A stretch of DNA of 64,000 bases from a virus (Duplodnaviria > Caudoviricetes): IMG/VR virus record IMGVR_UViG_3300035182_001152, one strand, 5' to 3'. Numbering within the stretch: the stretch's first letter is position 1; each line of letters starts with the position of its first letter. The notes below the pieces were generated by a model. That model saw only the letters and a list, made by a program, of their open reading frames with translations. It did not search any database and was not told the DNA's origin. The position numbers were made by a program, and so were the translations under genes. This document shows, piece after piece, positions 2,680 through 52,346 of this stretch.

Positions 2680-4215
2680 ATGACAACAACAAGAAGCGAA
2701 TGCAAAATTCGCCTGCTAGATGAGGTTACAGCGTTTGTCGTCGGTCTGCGAGGAGAGCACCTGGAGGCTCTGTCGGACCGCTACGCCGTCAATGCAGCGA
2801 ACTATTTCTTCAACCCACGGTTCAAACTTGGACAGTGGGATGGTAAGATCCGTTACTTCCACAAGAACGGCAAGACGTACATTTACCTGTTAGATGACAT
2901 CCTGCCACGCCTGGTTAAACTAGGGTACAAAGTAACGATTGAAGACCTTCGCTCGCCAGCACCTCAACCAGAGTTGGCGACTGCTGATATGTTTAAGGAC
3001 GTGCTCCACCCGGATACAGGTGAGCCGATCATCCTGCGCGACTATCAGTACAACAATGTGAACAATCTAATTGAGCACGGTAACGGCTTAATTATTGCAT
3101 CAACTGGTGCGGGTAAGACGCTGTTGTCCGCATGTCTCGTTAACTCATACGGCAAGCTTGGCCTGAAGACGTTAACGATTGTTCCCAACCAGGATTTGAT
3201 CCGCAACACCAAGCAAGACTACATCAATTGCGGTCTCGATACGGGTGAGTATAGCGGCACATCAAAGACGCTCGAACATCAACACATCGTGTCAACGTGG
3301 CAAGCGTTGAAGAACAATCCAAAGATCATCGAACTGTTCCAAGTGATTCTTGTTGACGAGTGTCACGGTGCAAAAGGCAACGTGCTGCAAAAGATCCTAA
3401 CAGATCATGCAGCACGAATTCCGTACCGATTTGGTGTCACGGGCACGCTACCGAAGGATCCATCCGATGTGATGTCGATTAAGGTTGCTCTTGGGCCCGT
3501 TCGTGGAACCGTCACGGCAGCAGAATTGATGGATCGTGGTATTCTGGCACAGCTGCACATTGACGTCCTGCAGTTGGAAGAAGACTTACGCGACGAGTAC
3601 AACAAGTTCTGCGCTGAAGACGTTGTCAACGTTAAGCCACCTACATACACGGCGTTCAAGGACGCATACTTCGGTGATTTTGCAGCGGAAAAGTCGTACC
3701 TGCATCGCAAAAAGGATCGGATTGAGTGGATTGCAGACTTCTTGTGTGCTAAGCGTGACACGGGGAAGGGCAATGTATTGTGCCTCGTTGACAGTATTCC
3801 GTTTGGACGCCAGCTAGCAAACATCATCCCTAATGCAATCTTCGTCAATGGCCAGGATGTCAAGAAGTCTGAAGAGCGCCAGAAGATTTACGACTTGTTC
3901 AAGAACAACGACGATCTCGTTGTGATTGCAACTGTTCACATCGCAGGCACAGGCCTAAACATTCGACGAATCTTCAACCTCGTGATGGTTGACGTGGGCA
4001 AGTCTTTCATCCGTGTGATCCAGGCGATTGGTCGAGGATTACGCACAGCTGAGGACAAGAAGTCTGTGATTGTGACCGACATTTGTGGAGACCTCAAGTA
4101 CAGTAAAAAGCACTTGAAGGAACGGACAAACTACTACGAAGAAGCCCAGTACAAGTACAAAAAACACCAAATCGACTACGTTAAGCAGATGTCCGCTCTT
4201 GACGGGTTCGAATAA
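2680..4215 (+). CDS. uvsW: UvsW-like SF2 DNA helicase
   Basis: LRDYQ, STGAGKT (Walker A), DECH, GVTGT and QAIGRGLR motifs; start adjusted to ATG 2680. Confidence 0.9.
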   Translation: MTTTRSECKIRLLDEVTAFVVGLRGEHLEALSDRYAVNAANYFFNPRFKLGQWDGKIRYFHKNGKTYIYLLDDILPRLVKLGYKVTIEDLRSPAPQPELATADMFKDVLHPDTGEPIILRDYQYNNVNNLIEHGNGLIIASTGAGKTLLSACLVNSYGKLGLKTLTIVPNQDLIRNTKQDYINCGLDTGEYSGTSKTLEHQHIVSTWQALKNNPKIIELFQVILVDECHGAKGNVLQKILTDHAARIPYRFGVTGTLPKDPSDVMSIKVALGPVRGTVTAAELMDRGILAQLHIDVLQLEEDLRDEYNKFCAEDVVNVKPPTYTAFKDAYFGDFAAEKSYLHRKKDRIEWIADFLCAKRDTGKGNVLCLVDSIPFGRQLANIIPNAIFVNGQDVKKSEERQKIYDLFKNNDDLVVIATVHIAGTGLNIRRIFNLVMVDVGKSFIRVIQAIGRGLRTAEDKKSVIVTDICGDLKYSKKHLKERTNYYEEAQYKYKKHQIDYVKQMSALDGFE

Positions 4216-32149: not shown

Positions 32150-32884
32150 ATGACACAGTACTACACCTATGTTCTAACCAATTCTCTAGATGGTCAACCG
32201 TTTTATGTGGGTGAGGGCTCCGGAAGTCGGATGTACCAGCACTTACGTGAAGCTGAACGGCAAGACACAACCAAACGTAGCGTCCACTACAAAATTCTCA
32301 GCCTTAAAGAGAAGGGCGGCCACGTCATCTACGCGAAGGTGGAGTGGGAAACAGAGCAGCAAGCATTTGACGAGGAGAAGCGCCTAATTGCATTGCATGG
32401 TCGTAAGGATCTCGGAACCGGACCACTGTGCAACCTAACTGACGGCGGTGAAGGCGCTCAACGTAGTCGGGAAAGTGTTGAGCGAACAGCCGCTGCACAT
32501 CGCGGCATGAAACGATCAACAGAAACAAAATTGCGGATGAAGGAAGCGCAACTCCAGGTAGCTGCAAAGTGCCGTGAACAGTGGGGGATCGGAAAAAGTC
32601 CAGAGTCTGAGCAGAAGCGCGTGGCTAAACGCAAAGATGTTCCGTGGAGCGAGAATGCAAGGAATGTAAAGCGAGAAAAGCCTACGGCCATCCCGGTACA
32701 GGCATTCAAAAAGGATACAGGCGAATTAGTCGGTGAATGGGAATCTATGGCTCTGTGCGCCAAGGAGTTGAATTGCGACCTAGCTGCCATATGGAAGATT
32801 TTGTCAGGATTTATGTCGAAAGCACCCGACGGTACGATGCGTCCGTATAAATCCCACAAAGGCTACACCTTTAGGTACAAATAA
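32150..32884 (+). CDS. GIY-YIG (Seg-like) homing endonuclease
   Basis: YYTYVL..PFYVGEG..RMYQH, E..LI..GR..LCNLTDGGEG; NUMOD-type C-terminus; own TATAAATA at 32121. Confidence 0.85.
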   Translation: MTQYYTYVLTNSLDGQPFYVGEGSGSRMYQHLREAERQDTTKRSVHYKILSLKEKGGHVIYAKVEWETEQQAFDEEKRLIALHGRKDLGTGPLCNLTDGGEGAQRSRESVERTAAAHRGMKRSTETKLRMKEAQLQVAAKCREQWGIGKSPESEQKRVAKRKDVPWSENARNVKREKPTAIPVQAFKKDTGELVGEWESMALCAKELNCDLAAIWKILSGFMSKAPDGTMRPYKSHKGYTFRYK

Positions 32885-32912
32885 AAAGAGGACCGTTAGG
32901 TCCTCTTTTTAT
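32881..32912. terminator. bidirectional intrinsic terminator
   Basis: ATAAAAAGAGGACC-GTTA-GGTCCTCTTTTTAT between convergent genes. Confidence 0.9.
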
Positions 32913-33979
32913 TAGCGTAGTCCGCCTGGTATTCCTTTGGATACTACCGCGGTCGCACTCCAGGGATGGAGGCTCTCGAGGTGCTCCGTCACGATCGAGA
33001 AGTCGCTGATCTTACCCTCGTCGTATATTGCGTCAAGGCCTTGGTACATTAGACGCGATGCATCTTCTGTGAACAGAAGATTGGAACCATTCAGTTCAGC
33101 GAACGCCTGCTCATCACGACGCTTGCAAATGATCACAACTTCCGTGGGGATTTGCTTGCGAGCCATCTCAATGATGTCTTCAATGTACACAATGTGCTTT
33201 TCTGGATTGAACTGCACGGTGATCTTTGCAATCGAACGTTGACTGTGGCCATTCGCCGCTTGACCACGCTTGAGTGTTGCGTCTTGTGCAAGCTCAAACG
33301 AGCACGGGCATGTTGATGAGTACACGTAGTTGACTGTCAGGAAGAACGTATACACGCCGCTGTGAGATTGCGCTTCCAAAACGCAGTCATAGAAGATGTG
33401 ACCGATTGCCTTTTTGTGACTGAGATACACGCCTTCTACTTCCTTGAAGAAGTCAGGGCTTGCCTTCAGAGCTTCAACGCTACCGAAGTCTTCCACCTTC
33501 AGGTCTTGGCGGGTACGGAGAGCCTCCTGTGTCCACGGATACTTGAACCGCAGCTTACAGTAGGTGCTGTTGCTGCCCTGCTTAGCCTGCAGCTTGTTCA
33601 GCACGCCCTTGAGGCCATCAATCGATAGGTGGCCGGCAATTTCCTCGTGCATGACAATTGGGAATCGCGACAGGTTCAGACCCTTTGCGTTCGGGTTGTC
33701 AAGTGAACCATACAGTGATGCCTCGGCTTGCAGCTCTTGAACTGTGCCATCGCGGCGCAGGAACTTGATCGGGAGATGTACGCCATTCACACCAACCTTG
33801 TCCAATTGAACGCGGAGGCCCGGAATGAACGGATCGATCTGTGGATCGGGTAGGTCAGCATCCTCAGGATAGTAGTCCGCATCGTACTGAAACTTCAGAT
33901 GCGGCATGTGCTGTGTGTAGTCGTTGAAGCGGAACCGACGACCACGCACGACGTTCCCTAGATATTGTTCTTGTGACAT
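32912..33979 (-). CDS. folE2: GTP cyclohydrolase IB
   Basis: DLPDPQ, LDKVGV, KGLNLSRF, SSTCPCS, HSQRS, KRRDEQAF, LFTEDASR, ESLHPW. Confidence 0.9.
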   Translation of the reverse strand: MSQEQYLGNVVRGRRFRFNDYTQHMPHLKFQYDADYYPEDADLPDPQIDPFIPGLRVQLDKVGVNGVHLPIKFLRRDGTVQELQAEASLYGSLDNPNAKGLNLSRFPIVMHEEIAGHLSIDGLKGVLNKLQAKQGSNSTYCKLRFKYPWTQEALRTRQDLKVEDFGSVEALKASPDFFKEVEGVYLSHKKAIGHIFYDCVLEAQSHSGVYTFFLTVNYVYSSTCPCSFELAQDATLKRGQAANGHSQRSIAKITVQFNPEKHIVYIEDIIEMARKQIPTEVVIICKRRDEQAFAELNGSNLLFTEDASRLMYQGLDAIYDEGKISDFSIVTEHLESLHPWSATAVVSKGIPGGLR

Positions 33980-38088: not shown

Positions 38089-38589
38089 CTATTTATCCGT
38101 CAACGGGTACAAGTCGCAAATAAACACATTGACGTTGTACTGCTGCTGAAGGGTGTCGATCATTGGACCAACGTTTTCCCACTTCAAGCCGCCAAGCCCG
38201 CACCCAACACGAGGCATATACAGGTCCAAATTTGTGCCACGACAAAACGACAGTGTTGCTTCCGCCGCTTTTTGAATAGCGAGTTGACTTGCATACGCAC
38301 GGCCGTCCCTACCACAATCTTCTTGCGTGAACATATTGGCAACAAAGATTGAGTTTGGCTCATCAATGTCTGGATGCCCCACATTGACAATTTGGCTAAG
38401 ACCAAGTAGTTCACGCGTCGGACGCTTCCACGCTTTAACCATTGAGTGGTATCGCTCGTAAGCAATCGCCCATTTGTTTTTGATCGCAAGAGCCACGCCC
38501 GAACCCATCACCCCGCGACTATTGACGCCTTGCCCAACCACACCTCTTACGACCGTAGTAACGTCTTTTTGAATGTAGGTTAAGGCCAT
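38089..38589 (-). CDS. macrodomain (ADP-ribose hydrolase-like) protein
   Basis: IQKDVT..GVNSRGVMGSGVALAIKNKW, MPRVGCGLGGLKW. Confidence 0.85.
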   Translation of the reverse strand: MALTYIQKDVTTVVRGVVGQGVNSRGVMGSGVALAIKNKWAIAYERYHSMVKAWKRPTRELLGLSQIVNVGHPDIDEPNSIFVANMFTQEDCGRDGRAYASQLAIQKAAEATLSFCRGTNLDLYMPRVGCGLGGLKWENVGPMIDTLQQQYNVNVFICDLYPLTDK

Positions 38590-38590
38590 G

Positions 38591-38959
38591 TTATGTCCGA
38601 TTGAAGTACATCCGGGCGCCGTTTTCGCTGTCTTCAGACACTTCGATCACCAGCTCACGACCGGGATACGTCTTTGCGATGTAGTCTGCCAAGTCTTCTG
38701 CGATCATTTCGCACGACTTGTGGTTCAGCTGGAGAGTGCCAGATGAGTACAGCGATTCCAGCTCACGCTTCAGCAGGATGAACTCGACATCACGATTGGT
38801 GTGCTTGACTTCCAGCTCGACGCGGAAGTGGAACATATGACGGTGTGGATATCCAAGGAAGCTGACGTCAGCGAGCAACGGATTGGTAGCAGCGTCGGGA
38901 TAAAGGTGAACGCCTTCCTTAGCAAACTGTACGAAAATAAATTGTTTATCAGCCTTCAT
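38591..38959 (-). CDS. QueD/6-pyruvoyl-tetrahydropterin-synthase-like protein
   Basis: EGVHLYP..LGYPHRHMFHF..RDVEFI..SCEMIA..VSEDSENGA. Confidence 0.7.
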   Translation of the reverse strand: MKADKQFIFVQFAKEGVHLYPDAATNPLLADVSFLGYPHRHMFHFRVELEVKHTNRDVEFILLKRELESLYSSGTLQLNHKSCEMIAEDLADYIAKTYPGRELVIEVSEDSENGARMYFNRT

Positions 38960-39437
38960 TGTTTTGTCCTTTGGTTCTTTCGTATGTTAATCGTCTAGCC
39001 TCCGACCAAGGCTTACCTGTTTTCTTCTCGGAAATCAGTTTCTTAGTTTCGTCAGAGAGCTTAGTTCCCTTCGGGCGTCCCTTCAACAACCCCTGCTCGC
39101 TTAATGTGCGGCCGGCGTTCCAACTCTCTTGCTTTGCGCTCGTCTGACCATTTTTTTGTTTGGATTTGGACCCGAAAGATTATGGCGGTGTTGTTCAGAC
39201 TTCGCTCTACCAAGTTGTGACGGTGGCCGCTGATCATCAATAATGTTAGTCAGTGTCCCAGTACAGGCAGCTTGCCTTTTGACAGAATGCTCTGCATCTT
39301 GCAAAATTTCCATCGATTTGATGTTGTCTGGAGCGTTTCGTTGAGGTGATCCAAGTGGCGTTGGTTTTCCACTTGCCCTTTCCAATGTAGAAAGGTAGCA
39401 GCGTATCAGGATCTTTATAGCAGTAAACGTAGTACAT
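38949..39437 (-). pseudogene. frameshifted GIY-YIG/NUMOD3 homing endonuclease
   Basis: YYVYCY..FYIGKG, then RHLDH, GRAKSEQHRHNLS and GTKLSDETKKLISE in successive frames. Confidence 0.8.
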
Positions 39438-39466
39438 AAATTTCTCCTACGTTTACTTATTGAAAG

Positions 39467-39517
39467 TCACTGCTCCTTTTGGAACGTAACGAAGATGAAT
39501 TGCTTATTTGCTTGCAT
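39467..39517 (-). pseudogene. orphan duplicate of the QueD-like N-terminus
   Basis: GAGGAG RBS + MQANKQFIFVTFQKEQ* versus MKADKQFIFVQFAKEG. Confidence 0.75.
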
Positions 39518-39570
39518 GGTTTCTCCTCAGAATGAGTAAATAGTATACAACTTTCAATGGGTTAACAACT

Positions 39571-40191
39571 ATGAAACTTTATGAGCTCCAGCAACTGGAC
39601 GAGGGACTAATGCAACGCGTCTTAGCTGCAGCAACGCTTGCAGCTGGCATGCTAATTACCCCTACGGCAAATACTCCTGAACTGCCTGCTGATATGGTAC
39701 AAGCTATTGGTCAGCGCACGGGAATGGACAAGCAAGCGATGATCGCTAAGATGGCGGCGATTGCGTCAGACAAGTATCACGCTGACCCAGCAATGGTCAA
39801 GCAGGTTGTCCAACTAGCTGTTAAATACTCATATCCAGACTTCCCCACAGCAAAAGACCTACTCGCTGTTGTCGGTGTAGAGAGCTCGTTCAATCCAAAC
39901 GCCGTCTCGAAGCTCAAGCATGATCCGGCTCGCGGCCTTCTACAGGTCCGCCCAGGTGTTTGGGGGATGAAGCCTCAACAACTATCAACAATCGAGGATC
40001 AAATTAAGATGGGTGCGAAAGTGTTGCGCAGCTACTACAAGCGGTTTGGATCTCGAGAAGCTGCACTGCACGCTTTCAACGTTGGGCCCAAGAATCATAT
40101 CAAGAGTGCGAAGCAGCCCAACAAGGGTAACCCACGGTACGTGCCCAAGGTTGATGCTGAAGAACGATTGTACGCAGAGTTGGAGCGATAA
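39571..40191 (+). CDS. SLT-domain lytic transglycosylase
   Basis: AVVGVESSFNPNAVS, ARGLLQV, ALHAFNVGP..YV.KV; TAAATA upstream. Confidence 0.85.
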   Translation: MKLYELQQLDEGLMQRVLAAATLAAGMLITPTANTPELPADMVQAIGQRTGMDKQAMIAKMAAIASDKYHADPAMVKQVVQLAVKYSYPDFPTAKDLLAVVGVESSFNPNAVSKLKHDPARGLLQVRPGVWGMKPQQLSTIEDQIKMGAKVLRSYYKRFGSREAALHAFNVGPKNHIKSAKQPNKGNPRYVPKVDAEERLYAELER

Positions 40192-50688: not shown

Positions 50689-51858
50689 TTATGACAGATG
50701 GATCCGAGCGAAATTTCGCTTACCTACTTGCATCACGTAGGTGCCTGGTTCGATCACGCGCCTTTTGTCTTGCTCGACCACACCGTCGATGCGGATCCCA
50801 CGCTGTTCGATCTTTCGCCCGGCTTCAGACATCGAGGGGCACAGGCCAGATTCCTTTAGCAAGGATGTGACAGGACGAGCGCCGCCTGATGCATAGAAGT
50901 CGCGCACTTCTGCCGGAATTCCACCGTTAGAACGGTTGACAAAGTCGTCATGCGCACGATCTGCCAGTTCTGCGGAATGGAACCGCGTAACCAGTTCTTT
51001 TGCAAAGGTGACCTTGATGTCTCGGCAGTTGACATCAGAACGACGAACAAGGGCTTGCGCGACCAGCTGTCCGTTACCGCTGAGCAGCGGAATCCAATCC
51101 CACATCAGCTTGTCGCTGATTGCCATCACCTGCGAGAACATCTGTTCGGGTGGCGTAGCAACACCGATGTAGTTGTTCTTCGACTTCGACATCTTGTGCG
51201 TGCCGTCCGTCCCGACCAGCAGCGGCATCGTCAGAATGCACTGCGGAGATAGCCCGTAGGCTTCTTGCAGCTGACGACCAACCATCAGGTTGAACGTCTG
51301 ATCTGTGCCACCGATCTCCAAGTCCGCATTGAGTGCGACGGAATCGTAGCCTTGTAGCAGGGGGTACAGGAACTCGTGGATGCTAATTGGAGTTTGAGCC
51401 TGCAGCCGCTTGGCGAAATCGTCCCGCTCAAGCATTCGAGCGACAGTGTGCTTGGCAGCGAGTTCGACCAGCCCACGTGCACCAAGCGCGTTGCACCACT
51501 CGCTGTTCCAGCGGACCTCCGTCTTCGATTGGTCGAGCACCTTCCACGCTTGATCGCAGTACGTCTCCGCGTTCAGTTGAATCTGATGGTGAGACAGTAC
51601 CGGTCGGGTGGAGTTGCGGCCAGACGGATCGCCAATCGCGGCTGTGAAGTCACCGATTAGCAGAATTACCGTATGCCCAAGATCCTGCAGTTGCCGTAGC
51701 TTCTGCAGGACGACGACGTGCCCGAAGTGAATGTCGGGAGCGGTTGGGTCGAACCCGAGCTTGATCCGAAGCGGCACGCCGGTCTGTTGGGACTTCAGCA
51801 GCTTCTTTTCCCACTCGTCGCGCGGCGTCAGAGAGACGCTACCCGCGATAGTGGTCAT
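50689..51858 (-). CDS. tyrS: tyrosyl-tRNA synthetase
   Basis: GFDPTAPDIHFGH (HIGH-like), LQGYDSV, GGTDQ.FN, KMSKS, C-terminal S4 domain VGKR. Confidence 0.95.
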   Translation of the reverse strand: MTTIAGSVSLTPRDEWEKKLLKSQQTGVPLRIKLGFDPTAPDIHFGHVVVLQKLRQLQDLGHTVILLIGDFTAAIGDPSGRNSTRPVLSHHQIQLNAETYCDQAWKVLDQSKTEVRWNSEWCNALGARGLVELAAKHTVARMLERDDFAKRLQAQTPISIHEFLYPLLQGYDSVALNADLEIGGTDQTFNLMVGRQLQEAYGLSPQCILTMPLLVGTDGTHKMSKSKNNYIGVATPPEQMFSQVMAISDKLMWDWIPLLSGNGQLVAQALVRRSDVNCRDIKVTFAKELVTRFHSAELADRAHDDFVNRSNGGIPAEVRDFYASGGARPVTSLLKESGLCPSMSEAGRKIEQRGIRIDGVVEQDKRRVIEPGTYVMQVGKRNFARIHLS

Positions 51859-52346
51859 GAACGGTTGTTCAACAGCCGGGATGATCACACGCCGTCCCTG
51901 AACAGCTTGACGAGTCCGACGATCACGGTTATGCCAAACAGCATGTAGAAGCCGAACACCACTCCTGCGCCAATCAGTGCGCCCGTCAGGAACGCGCTGC
52001 AGCTCAGACCACCAATAAAGGCGCCGATTGCAGCGCCTGCACACATCCATTTCAACATTGTTTTTCTCCTGTGAAAATCCGTATACGTGAGCAGGTTGGT
52101 GAATCGATGTGTTACACTTACACCAGCAGTCAGCATGTCCCTTATCCGGAAAGGTCCACGTTTATCTAACGCCCTGCTCGTTACGCAGGATAACCGAAGC
52201 TCAAATCCAACTCTGCTCGCGTATACAGACGAGGATGGGGCTGTGATTCTGGCCGCCCCACCTTTTTGACGTTTCCAGGCAAACAGTGCAGCAATACGTA
52301 GCACCACACGTATTGCTGCTGGATTATGAGACCAGCAGCAAATCGC

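Follow-up and report, generated by a model that had tools for sequence, protein, structure and literature searches.

Within the 64,000-nt stretch of phage DNA analysed here (the window), a short open reading frame (the stub), a homing-endonuclease pseudogene and a gene of 122 codons (X) follow one another on the minus strand, in the interval 38591-39517 in which the earlier note had placed them (Table 1). The ATG of the stub at 39517 is preceded, at a distance of 7 nt, by a GAGGAG ribosome-binding site, in agreement with the strong site and the short X-like frame that had been described upstream of the endonuclease. This site lies in a 53-nt spacer that also carries a conserved upstream motif and that separates the stub from a divergent lytic transglycosylase (SLT) gene. 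Next come an 18-nt putative vestigial half-site of the X start, a second ribosome-binding site and the endonuclease pseudogene, the stop of which overlaps the start of X. X (38959-38591, 122 aa) has an AAGGA ribosome-binding site of its own directly upstream, and a Macro-domain gene is next after it. A scan of the minus strand for sigma-70 promoters and terminators found nothing, thus the promoter of X is unidentified; an Rfam search of window 38400-39800 gave no match at E <= 1.

Table 1. Features of the locus, with the motif that precedes the endonuclease in its relatives (L-numbered loci are metagenomic phage contigs; coordinates without a locus number are those of the window)
Feature	Coordinates	Strand	Basis or remark
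SLT lytic transglycosylase, divergent neighbour	39571..40191	+	Pfam SLT E = 2e-14; synteny anchor
SLT-X spacer, native 5' region of X	39518..39570	-	aligns with SLT-X spacers of empty L089 and L090
Stub	39467..39517	-	16 codons: native first 15 of X (39517-39473), CAG, TGA stop
Putative vestigial half-site, presumed part of the cassette, overlapping T4-late-promoter-like ATAAGTAAAC	39453..39470	-	reads VTFNK*
GIY-YIG/NUMOD3 endonuclease pseudogene	38949..39437	-	tblastn against intact homologues; Pfam; phrog_655
Pseudogene segments	39437-39369, 39381-39259, 39277-39116, 39110-38949	-	alignment to intact homologues
Cassette-borne replacement start of X	38915..38959	-	ATG; 15 codons ending KE
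X body, codons 16-122	38591..38914	-	QueD/PTPS-like T-fold (predicted); phrog_17812
Pre-endonuclease motif, window	39453-39470
Pre-endonuclease motif, L092	2970-2996
Pre-endonuclease motif, L176	1958-1984
Pre-endonuclease motif, L177	1960-1986
Pre-endonuclease motif, L180	1953-1979
Pre-endonuclease motif, L185	1456-1482

The first 15 codons of the stub and those of X are alike at 11 of 15 residues (the earlier note had recognized the pair and had counted ten) and at 30 of 45 nt, the longest run of nucleotide identity being 5 nt. Different codons are used for seven of the ten identical residues other than Met, which bears out the observation that most synonymous positions differ. When the 64-kb window was searched in six frames, each copy retrieved the other at E = 3e-4, and the next-best match was found at E = 2.4-4.

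X belongs to the large phage family phrog_17812 (E = 2e-34), with 324 loci in IMG/VR and ~8,000 homologues in the protein collection; in the phage GenBank collection only distant homologues (<60% identity) and no close phage were found. The N-terminus of the family is strongly conserved and reads ..(F/I)(I/W)(W/F)VTF(Q/R)KEG(I/V)H.., with T at position 11 in 143 of 164 proteins (87%) and Q or R at position 13 in 150 of them (91%). The stub has the consensus at both positions and the live X has Q and A, a combination that no other protein showed in a search of a 5.8-billion-sequence collection that was restricted to residues 1-40. The DNA pattern of the window's replacement motif retrieved nothing in IMG/VR either, and the donor of the window's own replacement N-terminus was not found in the IMG/VR DNA or in the protein collection.

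The structural model of X (pLDDT 92) was matched by Foldseek to Escherichia coli QueD (4ntk; TM 0.72, E = 2e-5) and to other PTPS T-fold proteins. At the sequence level, X matched no Pfam family at E <= 0.1 and so no PTPS (PF01242), a profile search of PDB sequences found nothing relevant, and hhalign of X against phage PTPS returned a probability of 4%. The earlier label of 'QueD-like' therefore stands for the fold and not for the sequence, and X is called QueD/PTPS-like here at the level of the modelled fold only. Weak matches of X to bacterioferritin were judged not meaningful. H18, H39 and H41, candidates for the His triad that such a T-fold has on strands 1 and 2, are invariant in the X family, and the window's X keeps all family-invariant residues. 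There is no Cys between strands 1 and 2 of X, which is where QueD/PTPS enzymes have their catalytic Cys. H18 is a probable metal-binding His, with any enzymatic activity of X being inferred from the fold alone; given the invariance of H18, H39 and H41, the insertion point described below would lie two codons before this residue.

X co-occurs with FolE2 or FolE in the window, L176 and L177. In L177 (175-1963), a divergent X paralogue (159 aa) is located directly after the genes for PTPS (QueD) and GTP cyclohydrolase I, a gene order that links X to pterin or 7-deazaguanine-type pathways. The window also harbours a second GIY-YIG endonuclease gene (32150-32884, plus strand), apparently intact, of 244 aa and 33% identical to P0268, which is antiparallel to its neighbours and adjoins a FolE2-like GTP cyclohydrolase gene (32912-33979, minus strand). 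This FolE2-like gene and X presumably act in the same pathway, so that in a single phage an endonuclease lies beside two of its genes.

The closest relatives of X (L088, L089 and L090; proteins 73-79% identical) are empty, that is, they have no endonuclease, and their N-termini match the stub. Nucleotide identity to these alleles is 82-87% for the stub versus 64% for the first 45 nt of the live X and ~75-77% for the remainder of X, and the homology between stub and empty alleles stops at codon 15/16. The position agrees as well: the distance from SLT to the X start is 55-63 nt in the empty L089 and L090, and that from SLT to the stub ATG is 53 nt in the window. The expectation in the earlier note that empty alleles should match the upstream copy was thus met in both sequence and position. 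In a sliding-window comparison with L088, L089 and L090, the first ~90 nt of the window's X are more divergent; since the closest empty relatives are only 73-79% identical, the right boundary of the foreign DNA cannot be placed in the window. Among the best 80 IMG/VR loci of X, none has an endonuclease adjoining X and none has a second N-terminal copy, indicating that occupied alleles are a minority.

When aligned to intact homologues (by tblastn against P0175, P0177 and P0185, and also against the endonuclease of L072), the pseudogene runs through frames a, c, b and a; four segments in three frames imply at least three frameshifts, as the earlier note's 'several' had suggested. The GIY ... 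YIG motifs are in 39437-39369, which agrees with residues 1-23 of intact homologues at 83-91% identity, and the conserved Arg/His block is present in the next frame after it. Approximately 24 codons are gone (residues ~61-84 of the homologues have no counterpart in the window DNA), and the deleted stretch is the catalytic Glu helix, in which A72, Y73 and E76 are invariant in the homologue alignment. Moreover, the C-terminal region is shortened, and the remnant amounts to ~163 codons versus 207-230 in intact relatives. NUMOD3 repeats are retained in 39089-38949 (Pfam PF07460, E = 1.3e-4, above the cut-off), the intact relatives carry PF22945 plus PF07460, and the pseudogene matches phrog_655 (homing endonuclease). 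Judged by these features, the endonuclease is a pseudogene of the GIY-YIG/NUMOD3 family and not a working member of it. It is free-standing: ribosome-binding site and start codon are its own, and it is not in the reading frame of X.

Read errors do not account for the frameshifts, as seven assemblies carry the same sequence without indels: the 927 nt are identical, or differ by one substitution, in seven contigs (from five JGI metagenomes and two SRA runs, representing different samples and two assemblers), which were found through the exact X protein. In addition, Logan contigs of four microbial-mat and sediment runs, at depths of 5-15, showed no differences. This check was performed on contigs only, so that rare endonuclease-free variants in the samples would be invisible, and some of the seven contigs and three of the four Logan runs are possibly from the source sample. 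The sequencing indels that the earlier note had wished to see excluded can thus be set aside, and the finding of a dead enzyme in all assemblies is consistent with its placement of the element late in the homing cycle.

A search with the first frame of the pseudogene revealed an intact enzyme of 225 aa in the IMG/VR contigs L091-L093 (L092:3001-3675); the frame-b open reading frame, used as a query, found no related loci. The arrangement in L092 begins with an X-derived stub of 35 codons, which closes with ..VTFRKE and is followed by unrelated sequence, the endonuclease gene and a full-length X reading ..VTFSKEG; L184 likewise has a 35-codon stub, an intact endonuclease and the X motif VTFSKE. 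An Rfam search of L092:2500-4300 found no intron. The reading frame of the stub in L092 and L184 continues through 45 codons of unrelated sequence to a stop (L092:2818-2955; L184:1318-1455), and this tail belongs to a 100% identical mobile block that the two contigs share. Stubs of 13-15 codons are followed by an intact endonuclease and an X with the motif VRFQRE in L180-182. A mini-stub of 9-10 codons (..IWVSFHK*), which may be the cassette's own vestigial half-site, precedes an intact endonuclease and the X motif VQFQKE in L185-187. L149 retains a C-terminal endonuclease fragment of 38 codons, with a stub given by the first 15 of 31 codons and the X motif VRFQKE. The window, for comparison, combines a stub of 15 codons plus the vestigial half-site with a dead endonuclease and the X motif VQFAKE. 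Separate lineages have this endonuclease clade directly upstream of X, together with a stub that stops at the same K-E codons.

Other members are arranged differently. In L176 only the vestigial motif accompanies an intact endonuclease (X motif VTFSRE), and in L183 a related intact endonuclease lies upstream of X with no stub and with the consensus motif in X; not every member of the clade therefore sits inside the gene. In L177, an intact endonuclease with the vestigial motif only is found downstream of the divergent X paralogue, beside PTPS and FolE, and the X motif is not applicable. An intact GIY-YIG gene in L072 (1521-2342) belongs to the same broad family but is more distant; it lies 1.7 kb upstream of X without a stub, and several small genes of a repeated '..FKLTW' family are found between the two.

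Two pairs of contigs revealed what is transferred. Between L184 and L092, a block of ~1 kb that comprises the endonuclease and the replacement N-terminus is 100% identical, with flanks that are 50-85% identical. At its left edge, the last difference is found 7 nt before the end of the stub and the block starts at the stub's AAAGAA; at its right edge, the first difference is found 6 nt after the KE of the downstream copy. Moreover, the stubs of the two contigs differ from each other and the replacement N-termini are identical. With its edges at the two KE copies, the block represents a discrete mobile cassette, and the element moves between genomes as a unit, although this was observed for the relatives and not for the window's dead copy. 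Between L149 and L174, which like L089 and L090 is an empty site, the flanks are 91-94% identical; in X itself identity is 61% over the first 87 nt and ~97% over nt 88-390, and the proteins are identical from EG onward. In both pairs the N-terminal segment thus arrived with the endonuclease and was joined at the KE|G boundary. This supports the earlier inference that the insertion carried a replacement N-terminus. The accompanying description, 'duplicated and recoded', needs a qualification: the downstream copy came with the cassette and did not originate from local duplication and recoding. Furthermore, the last 45 nt of the L092 stub match L174 at 43 of 45 positions, with genomes that are ~70% identical, which suggests, on sequence similarity, that co-conversion can extend over part of the stub, acting as a left arm.

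At the other end of X, L149 has 840 extra bases right after the gene (3034-3874) as compared with the empty L174. These encode an HNH-type endonuclease (ORF 3047-3799, minus strand, opposite to X), and the last ~12 codons of X beside it have diverged (20/30 and 14/24 identities). Going by this divergence, the HNH insertion may be a C-terminal replacement on X, and the logic of a replaced gene end may operate at the 3' end of X too.

To score the target copies, a 27-nt position matrix was built from 51 endonuclease-free X sites, for which leave-one-out scores range from 14.6 to 44.3 (median 37.9). The cassette-borne copies (n = 9) score between 3.8 and 18.7, lower than the 51 sites (Mann-Whitney p = 6e-6; the loci are not phylogenetically independent), and the L183 site scores 25.9. 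The window's live copy, with 3.8, is the lowest of all and lies under every one of the 51 endonuclease-free sites. In a comparison of stub and live copy locus by locus, the window's stub scores 25.3 and its live copy 3.4; the stub has the higher score in L092, L184 and L185-187 too, but not in L180, whose stub is cut short. Such off-consensus codons would fit a cleavage immunity of the occupied allele, an inference from codon statistics only, with no cleavage data.

Every endonuclease of the clade has a conserved motif ahead of its ATG, at a distance of 20-45 nt (Table 1), with a homologous motif seen in L185-187. It reads as a degenerate X half-site that ends in a stop, and overlaps a TATAAATA-like sequence resembling a T4 late promoter. 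In the window the motif (39470-39453) ranks 5th of ~128,000 positions on the half-site matrix. By inference, it would be what remains of an earlier insertion, carried along in the cassette, and it may be a late promoter as well. A second match to the matrix, at ~51012, lies inside a tyrosyl-tRNA synthetase gene and was rejected as a chance match; the gene (50689-52050, minus strand) encodes a full-length tyrosyl-tRNA synthetase-like protein of 453 aa.

Taken together, the locus is very probably the fossil of a mobile homing-endonuclease cassette that invaded the coding sequence of X without an intron or intein. The GIY-YIG enzyme would recognize the DNA encoding ..VTF(Q/R)KE|G.H.. near the 5' end of X, a target motif two codons before the invariant His. 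As inferred from GIY-YIG homing enzymes, an endonuclease-free X would be cut at or near KE|G during co-infection, and repair would copy the cassette, with homology arms provided by the stub region and by the body of X. The cut site is inferred from the clustering of junctions at the KE codons, in the absence of cleavage or homing data. Read from the left, the cassette holds the putative vestigial half-site with the late-promoter-like motif and the endonuclease gene, after which a ribosome-binding site and a start codon lead into replacement N-terminal codons that end in KE. In the comparisons above it is seen to land at the KE|G codon boundary, where the replacement codons fuse in frame to codon 16 of the recipient, so that a full-length chimeric X would be made; the recipient's first 15 codons are seen to persist upstream in the form of a dead stub, with a stop codon soon after them. 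The stub would then serve as the left homology arm for further homing, and the off-consensus copy, on statistical grounds only, would protect the occupied allele from both cleavage and repeat-mediated deletion. In the window phage the cassette became fixed, after which its endonuclease decayed, and decay of the enzyme is seen in L149 also. As for its origin, the composite likely dates from the copying of a free-standing endonuclease, placed upstream of X as it is in L183, into a phage with a different upstream context, with the left end joined without homology.

That origin is close to an explanation by a one-off illegitimate repair, in which a free-standing intergenic endonuclease lay upstream of X, and a recipient X, once cleaved, was repaired by homology on the right but by non-homologous joining on the left, so that the stub would be an accidental by-product and not part of a mobile unit. 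L183 and L176, where the clade is intergenic upstream of X without a native stub, are in its favour, as is the standard arrangement of the T4 seg genes, which cut the neighbouring gene (PMC2988022), and this is probably how the composite first arose. However, several lineages show the same junction, the edges of the L184/L092 block coincide exactly with the two KE copies and the stubs are different, and a vestigial half-site precedes every endonuclease of the clade. The recurring junction, the block edges and the half-sites argue for repeated transfer of a stub-flanked cassette and not for isolated accidents, and as an account of the locus a single such event is considered unlikely.

The upstream frame of 16 codons could also be a functional small peptide or a translational leader that merely resembles the X N-terminus, for which its strong ribosome-binding site and the retained native upstream region can be cited. 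Yet its counterparts end differently (45 extra codons in L092, five in L180, truncated in L149) and nothing is conserved past the X-derived part; this reading, which does not exclude the cassette, is regarded as very unlikely. Scarcely credible is a tandem duplication of the X 5' end, or of the whole X, followed by divergence and by later arrival of the endonuclease between the copies. Both copies do share the rare 'KQFIFV', otherwise found only in the closest relatives, but a second copy is absent from all of the best 80 IMG/VR relatives, the replacement N-termini of L184 and L092 are identical where their stubs differ, and in-place drift cannot produce a replaced segment that differs by 39% between flanks that differ by 6-9% (L149 versus L174). 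An artefact, whether a chimeric contig from assembly or false indels in the endonuclease from sequencing, found no evidence in its favour and is practically ruled out by the indel-free 927 nt in the seven contigs and by the agreement of the four runs.

Beyond this locus, we consider it reasonably likely that phages host active and widespread 'start-replacing' homing cassettes, equipped with a ribosome-binding site, a start codon and an off-consensus N-terminus, with the native start as left arm and with layered half-site fossils left by successive invasions. Such cassettes would add to introns and inteins a third general means by which an endonuclease can reside in coding DNA. Two ways of persisting are recognized for homing endonucleases, either inside the introns or inteins of conserved genes or harmlessly between genes, as in T4. 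The mobile cassette proposed here would be a third solution in phages: the element cuts (by inference) in a conserved motif close to the active site and brings its own gene start. As empty, intact, frameshifted and nearly deleted states are found at one site, the whole homing cycle is open to study, and the set of loci provides natural pairs of cleavable and presumably immune targets for a new GIY-YIG specificity. For annotation, short 'orphan' frames upstream of endonuclease genes may be gene stubs, and phylogenies of the host gene can be led astray by chimeric N-termini. For X, a QueD-like gene (at fold level) that travels with FolE/FolE2, the presence of the element also points to a degree of conservation among large phages that suffices to maintain a selfish element. 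The window's own copy is an inactive fossil that is valuable for having brought the family to light.

The literature yielded no phage in which an endonuclease comes with a replaced gene start, in a search limited to open-access sources that is not proof of absence. The free-standing seg (GIY-YIG) and mob (HNH) endonucleases of T4-like phages undergo intronless homing and are intergenic, with no duplication mentioned (PMC2988022). Like seg, the phage cassette has a GIY-YIG enzyme with NUMOD3 outside any intron or intein, an adjoining gene that is presumably cut and a late-promoter-like motif of its own; like seg and mob, it would spread by double-strand-break repair with co-conversion of neighbouring coding sequence. 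Unlike these intergenic genes, which leave no duplicate of the target, it is inserted inside a coding sequence and is accompanied by a stub and a replacement start.

The mobA / gene 60 cassette of T4, which Bonocora et al. are said to have described in 2011, reportedly joins an endonuclease to a neighbouring alteration that protects against its own cleavage; there the gene is said to be split in two, and the protection to be a 50-nt insert that ribosomes bypass. A preprint is related to this cassette (10.1101/2022.08.31.505936). Both systems pair an endonuclease gene with an altered copy of the adjacent target coding sequence. In the present case, by contrast, protection, if real, would be by codon changes in the replacement N-terminus, and X is unsplit. 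Other free-standing endonucleases lie inside conserved coding sequences with function retained, as in the Aeh1 nrdA split by mobE ('genes in pieces'; PMC2988022) and in the 'fractured genes' restored by split inteins (PMC2677866). The phage locus shares this position, but in those genes both halves are kept working or are spliced, whereas the upstream piece of X is discarded and replaced.

The closest known parallel is found in the mobile endonuclease ORFs (mORFs) of fungal mitochondria, which carry a replacement C-terminus and leave the native C-terminus as a duplicate (PMC3630166); examples are known from Allomyces macrogynus atp6 (GIY-YIG), Glomus sp. atp6, atp9, cox2 and nad3, Rhizopus atp9 and Mortierella cox2 (PMC3630166). 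In both cases an endonuclease ORF lies inside a protein gene without an intron, a diverged gene end fuses in frame, and the native gene end is left alongside as a non-functional duplicate. The corresponding order of stub, endonuclease and replacement N-terminus is met in the window and likewise in L092, L180 and L149, and the divergence is comparable: the native copy is 91-98% identical to relatives in mORFs and 82-87% in the window, and the inserted copy 64-81% and 64%, respectively. The differences are that an mORF is often fused in frame to its host gene whereas the phage endonuclease is a separate cistron, that the host is a phage and not a mitochondrion, with a QueD-like gene (by fold) as target, and that mORFs replace the C-terminus, with the native copy downstream, whereas the phage cassette replaces the N-terminus and must therefore supply a ribosome-binding site and a start codon. 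By this analogy, the phage case can be viewed as the 5' mirror image of the fungal mitochondrial mORFs.
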